This document shows positions 2,683-5,145 of a stretch of 64,000 bases of DNA, one piece after another (within the stretch, counting starts at the first letter, position 1; each line of letters begins with the position of its first letter). The translations under genes and the position numbers were made by a program. The notes under the pieces were generated by a model that was given only the letters and a program-made list of their open reading frames with translations, ran no database searches and was not told the origin of the DNA. Where the stretch lies: the NCBI RefSeq assembly GCF_013122565.1, contig NZ_CP053258.1; one strand, written 5' to 3'. This stretch comes from Escherichia coli (GTDB taxonomy: Bacteria > Pseudomonadota > Gammaproteobacteria > Enterobacterales > Enterobacteriaceae).

Positions 2683-2722
2683 CACCTGGTTAGGCTTCGG
2701 ACAACAATTATTCTCCAGTGTT

Positions 2723-2775
2723 ATATACTATAGGGGGGTATGCATTGACATATAGCATACCCCCCTATAGTATAT
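2723..2775 (+). promoter_or_regulatory. frmR promoter/operator: long inverted repeat with G6/C6 tracts flanked by TATAGTAT arms
   Basis: atactatagggggg ... cccccctatagtat inverted repeat directly upstream of frmR start; matches the known type of FrmR/RcnR-family operator (G/C tract flanked by AT-rich arms). Confidence 0.6.
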
Positions 2776-2799: not shown

Positions 2800-3075
2800 A
2801 TGCCCAGTACTCCGGAAGAGAAGAAAAAGGTCCTTACTCGAGTTCGTCGTATTCGAGGGCAGATTGATGCTCTGGAACGGTCGCTGGAGAGTGATGCCGA
2901 ATGCCGTGCCATACTCCAACAGATCGCTGCCGTTCGGGGCGCGGCTAATGGGCTGATGGCAGAAGTGCTTGAAAGCCATATCCGGGAAACGTTTGACCGA
3001 AATGACTGCTACAGCCGCGAAGTCAGCCAATCCGTTGACGACACTATTGAACTGGTTCGTGCCTATCTTAAATAG
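2800..3075 (+). CDS. frmR: Formaldehyde-responsive transcriptional repressor FrmR (RcnR/CsoR family)
   Basis: 91-aa product starting [21 protein letters not shown]; GAGG SD upstream; track ORF begins 21 nt earlier at an in-frame ATG. Confidence 0.9.
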
Positions 3076-3079
3076 CTGA

Positions 3080-4219
<1,140 letters not shown>

Positions 4220-4311: not shown

Positions 4312-5145
4312 ATGGAACTCATTGAAAAACATGCCAGCTTTGGCGGCTGGCAAAATGTGTATCGGCATTATTCCGCATCACTGAAATGTGAAATGAATGT
4401 CGGCGTCTATCTCCCACCAAAAGCTGCAGGTGAAAAATTACCTGTGCTGTACTGGCTTTCGGGCCTGACCTGCAATGAGCAGAATTTCATTACTAAATCG
4501 GGGATGCAGCGTTACGCGGCTGAGCACAACATTATTATTGTTGCGCCGGACACCAGTCCGCGAGGCAGTCATGTCGCAGATGCCGACCGTTACGATCTCG
4601 GGCAAGGTGCCGGGTTTTACCTGAACGCGACGCAAGCGCCGTGGAATGAACATTACAAAATGTATGACTATATCCGCAACGAGCTGCCGGATTTAGTGAT
4701 GCAACATTTTCCGGCAACGGCCAAAAAGTCTATCTCTGGTCATTCTATGGGCGGGCTGGGCGCGCTGGTGCTGGCGTTACGTAACCCAGATGAATATGTC
4801 AGCGTCTCGGCGTTTTCGCCCATTGTCTCCCCATCGCAAGTGCCGTGGGGACAGCAAGCCTTTGCTGCATATCTTGGTGAAAATAAAGAGGCCTGGTTGG
4901 ATTACGACCCGGTGAGTCTTATTTCACAAGGTCAACGCGTTGCGGAAATCATGGTTGATCAGGGGTTGAGTGATGATTTTTACGCGGAACAGCTGCGGAC
5001 TCAAAATCTTGAAAAGATCTGCCAGGAGATGAATATCAAGACGTTAATCCGTTATCACGAGGGTTACGACCACAGCTATTATTTTGTCTCCAGTTTTATT
5101 GGCGAGCATATTGCCTACCACGCCAATAAACTGAATATGCGTTGA
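4312..5145 (+). CDS. frmB: S-formylglutathione hydrolase
   Basis: 277 aa esterase D family, GHSMGG nucleophile elbow; follows frmA. Confidence 0.92.
   Translation: MELIEKHASFGGWQNVYRHYSASLKCEMNVGVYLPPKAAGEKLPVLYWLSGLTCNEQNFITKSGMQRYAAEHNIIIVAPDTSPRGSHVADADRYDLGQGAGFYLNATQAPWNEHYKMYDYIRNELPDLVMQHFPATAKKSISGHSMGGLGALVLALRNPDEYVSVSAFSPIVSPSQVPWGQQAFAAYLGENKEAWLDYDPVSLISQGQRVAEIMVDQGLSDDFYAEQLRTQNLEKICQEMNIKTLIRYHEGYDHSYYFVSSFIGEHIAYHANKLNMR

Follow-up and report, generated by a model that had tools for sequence, protein, structure and literature searches.

The 53-bp inverted repeat upstream of frmR is very probably the operator-promoter (Pfrm) of the Escherichia coli frmRAB operon, carrying two FrmR boxes in inverted orientation. 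A FrmR box of 17-19 bp, of type 1 in the CsoR/RcnR family, would occur twice in it, in place of a single extended operator. The distal copy would lie directly 5' of the -35 sequence TTGACA and the proximal copy would fill the promoter spacer and cover the -10 sequence. Sequence, orthology and a transplant experiment point to this assignment of two boxes in E. coli. A FrmR operator at this dyad is already known and has been in print since 2016 (PMC5146963). The present annotation confirms a textbook-style autoregulated operator-promoter, and it brings no new biology and raises no new question. The comparison of frmR loci makes a modest addition, namely that frmR promoters across Proteobacteria conserve one TACT-N7-AGTA box, which contains a G/C tract and overlaps the -10 sequence.

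Results

A perfect 53-bp dyad precedes frmR

The stretch of E. coli DNA that was analysed is 64,000 nucleotides long and is referred to as the window; its relevant features are listed in Table 1. The dyad upstream of frmR is composed of two 21-nt arms that are 100% complementary and are separated by the 11-nt spacer ATTGACATATA. It is confirmed to be real and highly non-random. Among the perfect inverted repeats with a loop of at most 40 nt in the 64-kb window it is the longest, the runner-up having arms of 14 nt, and by our own arithmetic a perfect dyad with 21-nt arms would be expected by chance ~64,000 x 41 x 4^-21 = 6e-7 times in the window. None of 200 dinucleotide shuffles folded as well as the dyad (z = -7.5 for RNA and -6.6 for DNA).

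A preliminary description of this DNA had quoted the inner 49 nt of the dyad (2725-2773) as an unusually long repeat centred on G6/C6 and directly abutting frmR. The long repeat stands, whereas the centring does not: the centre of the dyad is at position 2749, inside the -35 hexamer, and each arm holds one G/C tract (G6 at 2733-2738 and C6 at 2760-2765). Likewise, the dyad is situated just upstream of frmR but does not strictly abut it, as 24 nt that include the Shine-Dalgarno sequence lie between its end and the ATG.

Table 1. Position of the dyad, the FrmR boxes, the promoter elements and the frm genes in the window.
Feature	Position	Strand	Sequence	Remarks
Conserved block	2708..2722	.	TTATTCTCCAGTGTT	5' of the distal box; homology common to nearly all E. 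coli genomes starts here
Promoter-distal (left) arm	2723..2743	.	ATATACTATAGGGGGGTATGC	Perfect inverted repeat
Promoter-proximal (right) arm	2755..2775	.	GCATACCCCCCTATAGTATAT	Perfect inverted repeat
Distal FrmR box	2725..2741	.	ATAC-TATAGGGGG-GTAT	Type 1 site, TACT-N7-GGTA core; includes G6
Proximal FrmR box	2757..2773	.	ATAC-CCCCCTATA-GTAT	TACC-N7-AGTA core; includes C6; overlaps the -10 sequence
-35 hexamer	2745..2750	+	TTGACA	Promoter scan; in the spacer, between the boxes
-10 hexamer	2768..2773	+	TAGTAT	Promoter scan; 17-nt gap from the -35 hexamer; inside the proximal box
frmR	2800..3075	+		91 aa, formaldehyde-sensing CsoR/RcnR-family repressor; Shine-Dalgarno GAGG at 2790-2793
frmA	3110..4219	+		S-(hydroxymethyl)glutathione dehydrogenase, 369 aa
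frmB	4312..5145	+		S-formylglutathione hydrolase, 277 aa; ORF, identity from the operon structure in PMC5146963

The FrmR protein encoded in the window is identical to the crystallised EcFrmR (PDB 5LBM) at 90 of the 91 residues, G31S being the sole difference, and Pro2, Cys35 and His60 are present. The program-made open reading frame starts further upstream, at ATG 2779 (98 aa, MQMMRCEM...). The true start of frmR is the ATG at 2800, because the 91-aa crystallised protein matches, GAGG is found 6 nt upstream and sensing needs the N-terminal Pro2.

In 5,415 of the 5,426 complete E. coli genomes the frmR region was matched and annotated as such, and the 75 nt around the dyad were retrieved from 5,411 E. 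coli genomes at 90% identity or more. Alignment of the divergent alleles revealed that, rare variants aside, the arms of the dyad are near-invariant in E. coli. In E. albertii the perfect symmetry is already lost and the arms measure 14 nt. The rare promoter variants were observed in the E. coli strains MRY15-117, YJ1 and PA11 (L082, L083 and L081). In these variants the tract of the distal box is shortened from G6 to G5, the -35 sequence reads TTGAAA in place of TTGACA, or T replaces G at 2755, where the proximal arm has its inner edge. A homopolymer sequencing error could account for the G5 allele.

The dyad holds two probable FrmR boxes placed over the core promoter

The sequence ATAC-N9-GTAT occurs only twice in the 64-kb window, as the distal and the proximal box of the dyad, and no extra FrmR boxes were found in the window besides these two. 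Each of them has one mismatch to TACT-N7-AGTA. The boxes are inverted with respect to each other and their start-to-start distance is 32 bp, which corresponds to about three helical turns; the centre-to-centre distance is 32 bp as counted here versus 31 bp as stated in PMC5146963.

As stated in the preliminary description, a -35-like TTGACA is present in the loop of the dyad. The combination of TTGACA and TAGTAT agrees with the sigma-70 consensus at 10 of 12 positions and was the sole sigma-70-like match that the promoter scan returned between 2500 and 3200. With the alternative -10 sequence TATAGT (2766-2771) the spacer would be 15 nt. The transcription start is predicted near 2778-2781; in PMC5146963 the centre of the dyad is placed at -29, which implies a +1 at ~2778.

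Type 1 operators are characterized by a single G/C tract of 3-8 bp and flanking AT-rich inverted repeats that are 6-9 bp apart, and they sometimes occur in tandem (PMC3902906). Both boxes contain one uninterrupted G/C tract within this range, as described for the CsoR/RcnR (DUF156) family, and in both the tract is flanked by the inverted repeat ATAC-N9-GTAT. Moreover, they are located in the promoter of the operon that encodes the cognate repressor, where they bracket the -35 and cover the -10 sequence, and the motif is conserved 5' of frmA-linked frmR orthologues. Together with the near-identity of the repressor to 5LBM and the occurrence of the same repeat in PMC5146963, these properties bear out the original proposal that the dyad is a frmR operator of the RcnR/FrmR type. 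That proposal is refined in one respect, since the FrmR site is resolved into two boxes of 17-19 bp instead of a single extended dyad.

The block that precedes the distal box is retained with either fbpC or yaiO as upstream neighbour and is also present in E. albertii. Possibly, it represents flanking DNA that is needed for full repression, a connection suggested by the behaviour of a truncated promoter (PMC11127321) that is described below.

FrmR binding, repression and release

The "large inverted repeat" in E. coli Pfrm was described by Denby et al. (2016; Sci Rep 6:38879, PMC5146963) as tandem type I FrmR sites with the sequence ATAC-N9-GTAT. This is the same feature in the same species, and the promoter in the window is unchanged across the dyad. 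The window strain differs from the one described in having fbpC upstream (yaiO in K-12) and in the G31S substitution in FrmR, neither of which is substantive. EcFrmR was reported to bind a PCR fragment of Pfrm with a Kd of ~220 nM in a complex that was dissociated by formaldehyde, and transcription from Pfrm in vitro was repressed by FrmR and relieved by formaldehyde (PMC5146963). Binding of FrmR to the Pfrm fragment, repression in vitro as well as in vivo and release by formaldehyde have thus been shown in the literature.

In Salmonella, FrmR binds the 33-bp probe TTCTGATAGTATACCCCCCTATAGTATATGGAG, which contains a single box (Osman et al., 2015; 2016; PMC4528141, PMC5016687). Two FrmR tetramers were found per DNA with this probe, and binding was abolished when the left T/A-rich flank of the box was mutated (PMC4528141, PMC5016687). 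The box in the frmRA operator-promoter (frmRAPro) of Salmonella Typhimurium, ATACCCCCCTATAGTAT, is identical to the proximal box of E. coli and is likewise positioned just 5' of frmR. Unlike E. coli, Salmonella Typhimurium has only this box and no long dyad. A comparison with known FrmR sites, which the preliminary description had called for, therefore places the dyad on the published Pfrm sites (PMC5146963) and finds the Salmonella box to be identical.

In a study from 2024 (PMC11127321), two ATAC-N9-GTAT boxes were moved onto the constitutive promoter J23100, one 5' of the -35 sequence and the other within the spacer, where it overlapped the -10 sequence. The resulting promoter showed FrmR-dependent repression and 40-fold induction. 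A truncated PfrmR that retained both boxes and was devoid of the upstream DNA had lost repression (PMC11127321). This suggests that both boxes may not suffice in the native context. The accessible literature yielded neither a base-resolution footprint (DNase or hydroxyl-radical) of the E. coli promoter nor a mutagenesis of its individual boxes. Rohlhill et al. in 2017 (ACS Synth Biol 6:1584) reportedly carried out a Sort-Seq mutational scan of Pfrm. A paper from 2026 on methenamine/formaldehyde resistance contains no promoter information, and in a C1-biosensor paper the native promoter was merely reused.

From these data the following sequence of events can be proposed. In the absence of formaldehyde, tetrameric FrmR on the boxes would exclude RNA polymerase from the -35 and -10 sequences, and the operon would be autorepressed. 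Formaldehyde, as shown in the literature, cross-links Pro2 and Cys35 between subunits through methylene bridges and releases the repressor; with the DNA-binding face so remodelled, frmR, frmA and frmB would be transcribed. For the window, binding of FrmR at the boxes and its release by formaldehyde are presumed from the work on E. coli (PMC5146963) and Salmonella (PMC4528141, PMC5016687). We infer the occlusion of polymerase by occupancy of both boxes, as well as the contacted E. coli bases, the stoichiometry and the exact start of transcription. The position of the -35 hexamer between the boxes and of the -10 hexamer in the proximal box, and the repression conferred by the transplanted boxes (PMC11127321), agree with the earlier suggestion that repressor binding would occlude the promoter.

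According to the summaries of Iwig & Chivers (2009) in PMC3902906 and PMC5146963, the operator of E. coli RcnR, a repressor of the same family, is comparable. Located between rcnR and rcnA, it is a tandem type 1 pair and, like frm, carries TACT-N7-AGTA with a G6 tract (TACT-G6-N-AGTA). As summarized there, the RcnR boxes are 19 bp apart versus 32 bp in frm, and the effector of RcnR is Ni/Co versus formaldehyde. Unlike in the RcnR operator, the tract in frm is shifted so as to run into the inner half-site (GGTA/TACC), and the half-site on the outer side is extended to TATAGTAT.

A single box is the conserved element of frmR promoters

An FrmR profile yielded 80 frmR loci from species-representative genomes, and boxes were counted over 81 loci. 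In addition, 14 loci (seven pairs) from seven or eight further FrmR proteins, among them wild-type Salmonella FrmR, were included. A TACT-N7-AGTA box with at most one mismatch was found within 150 nt 5' of frmR in 77 of the 81 loci, and a frmA homologue was located 3' of frmR in 80 of the 81. The 11.9 kb of upstream sequence contained 89 sites, against 27 sites in the 237 kb elsewhere in the same loci (7.5 versus 0.11 per kb), an enrichment of ~65-fold. The typical FrmR box across the loci is TATACTATCCCCCAGTATA.

In the majority of species a single box is present at 27-51 nt from the ATG, and its downstream half (TATAGT/TAGTAT) doubles as the -10 sequence. Examples are Stenotrophomonas, Lysobacter, Brucella-type Rhizobiales, Tatumella, Providencia, Bisgaardia and Salmonella. 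A second, upstream box at a spacing of 32-34 nt was encountered in about nine lineages, in most of them with TTGAC between the boxes. The two-box lineages that can be named are Escherichia, Edwardsiella, a Serratia sp., S. ureilytica, Erwinia, a Plesiomonas-type lineage, Deefgea and one metagenomic lineage. A box in the distal position is shared by the Edwardsiella, Serratia, Erwinia, Plesiomonas-type and Deefgea promoters. What is conserved and enriched across Proteobacteria is therefore the box, placed over the core promoter, and not the dyad itself. On the sequences compared, Escherichia and some of its relatives have gained the second box, and with it the long dyad, as a lineage-specific addition.

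In Escherichia, Edwardsiella and Serratia the two boxes are inverted relative to each other. In Erwinia endophytica (L005) the boxes TACTGGGATATAGTA and TACTGGTGTATAGTA, situated from ~78 to 30 nt 5' of frmR, form a direct repeat with a 33-nt spacing around TTGACC; 15 of 17 positions are identical when they are read directly versus 10 of 17 when one is inverted. These direct repeats show that the FrmR boxes are free in their orientation. Because the Erwinia boxes are direct, the selected unit is the box together with its position over the core promoter and not a dyad capable of forming a hairpin.

Two metagenome-assembled genomes of Proteobacteria (L027 and L031) have boxes that are 24 nt apart between ~60 and 15 nt 5' of frmR (e.g. 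TATACCCCCAGGTAGTATA ... TATACTGGGGGGGTGTATG), a geometry that differs from the enterobacterial 32-34 nt. A widespread Klebsiella-type frmR (P0063; L003 1-3273, L086 and L087; 91% identical) was present on at least 1,000 contigs without frmA downstream and was flanked by a DUF488 gene on one side and by IS1 or part of a Tn3-family transposase on the other. An identical copy of its promoter, in which the distal box is spaced as ATAC-N10-GTAT, was found in a Maribrevibacterium assembly. This looks like an orphaned, mobile copy of frmR. A FrmR protein that is 97% identical to that of E. coli (P0050) came from a 620-nt contig labelled Xanthomonas citri pv. citri and is most likely due to assembly contamination.

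Origin of the symmetry between the arms

Both E. coli boxes are equal to the consensus 17-mer of the family, the sequence given above for the Salmonella box. This 17-mer is asymmetric and is present in E. coli in opposite orientations. Elsewhere the 17-mer recurs in the proximal position (Salmonella, the Plesiomonas-type promoter and P0113) or in the distal one (S. ureilytica, Enterobacter and E. albertii). The E. coli dyad is therefore long and perfect because two inverted boxes both match the consensus. Its length would have no function of its own and the dyad would not constitute a separate element.

Perfect long dyads whose tract edges differ were found on a plasmid of Edwardsiella anguillarum (18 nt, GTGGAG/CTCCAC) and in L092 (at least 18 nt, CGGGGG/CCCCCG). 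In both of these dyads the changes are matched in the two arms, which hinted at their concerted evolution. Arm identity was 15.6/17 within promoters versus 15.1-15.2/17 between promoters, a difference that was not significant in a permutation test (p = 0.09 for 9 loci and p = 0.12 for 7 non-redundant loci). Concerted evolution or hairpin-templated homogenization of the arms was considered and rejected on this result, the arms simply being equal to the consensus box.

It is conceivable, though unlikely, that the two inverted boxes operate as one cooperative unit, in which FrmR tetramers, or a single tetramer through both of its faces, would bridge the arms and wrap the flanks, trapping the -35 sequence in a small loop. 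This would explain why the symmetry is kept in E. coli, why the tract variants of Edwardsiella and L092 are matched, and why repression is lost from the truncated promoter. Cooperativity by bridging or wrapping is hinted at by that loss (PMC11127321) and by a speculation of Denby et al., who raised the possibility of one tetramer bridging both E. coli boxes (PMC5146963).

It is quite improbable that the whole 53 bp form one extended palindromic operator, of which the long-range symmetry itself is required, for instance by a symmetric higher-order assembly of FrmR or by one tetramer that bridges the arms with both faces and sandwiches the -35 sequence. The 21/21 match of the arms, near-invariant in more than 5,400 E. 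coli genomes, the spacing of about three helical turns, the bridging considered by Denby et al. and the perfect dyads of the E. anguillarum plasmid and L092 are in line with such an operator. However, most frmR promoters, including that of Salmonella, have only one box, and a one-box 33-mer is bound tightly by FrmR. The Erwinia boxes match directly rather than inversely, and the arms are imperfect (13-16/17) in E. albertii, E. hoshinae, Serratia and the Plesiomonas-type promoter. The arms of one promoter do not resemble each other significantly more than those of different promoters, and the symmetry is sufficiently explained by both E. coli arms being the family consensus box.

The dyad as a structured nucleic acid

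The dyad is predicted to fold into a hairpin of high stability (RNA, -40.5 kcal/mol; DNA, -22.2 kcal/mol). This could be taken to indicate an RNA hairpin, serving as leader/attenuator or as terminator/insulator that stops read-through coming from the gene upstream, or else a DNA cruciform that forms under supercoiling and influences the promoter. Such a role is very improbable. The stem is not followed by a T-run on either strand and was not called by the terminator scan. The dyad lies 5' of the predicted transcription start and is therefore outside the frm mRNA. Nor is the hairpin conserved: perfect repeats do not exceed 6-10 nt in the two-box promoters of Erwinia, Deefgea, E. hoshinae and Serratia, and are absent from the one-box species. 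The hits in Rfam were confined to miRNA-hairpin noise scoring 20-27 bits, far short of the gathering thresholds of 73-90. An intrinsic terminator or structured RNA element was therefore rejected, on the missing T-run, the missing terminator call and the sub-threshold Rfam scores.

Genomic setting of Pfrm

The upstream neighbour of Pfrm is fbpC in ~450 of the 5,426 genomes and yaiO in the rest. Homology to most E. coli genomes starts at ~2708, only 15 nt from the repeat, as might be expected if the dyad were left over from mobile DNA or served in recombination (as terminal inverted repeats or an att-like site) at the junction of frm and the variable region. This reading is effectively refuted by the cross-species linkage of box and frmR, since frmR is preceded by these boxes also in distant Proteobacteria where its neighbours are unrelated; furthermore, the dyad is contained in the block that both contexts and E. 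albertii have in common, the similarity 5' of 2708 fades gradually without a sharp break, and no further copy of an arm was found in the 64-kb window.

The comparative findings on the FrmR box are of use for the engineering of Pfrm-based formaldehyde biosensors and for the prediction of FrmR regulons.

The fbpC gene encodes the ATPase of a ferric ABC transporter, and a permease gene is found further upstream. Just past the fbpC stop codon, at 2653-2682, a perfect 9-bp stem (AACGGTCCC / GGGACCGTT) with a 12-nt loop was observed, which on the + strand is not followed by a T-run. It may function as a weak terminator or as a stabilizing hairpin for the upstream ABC-transporter operon.
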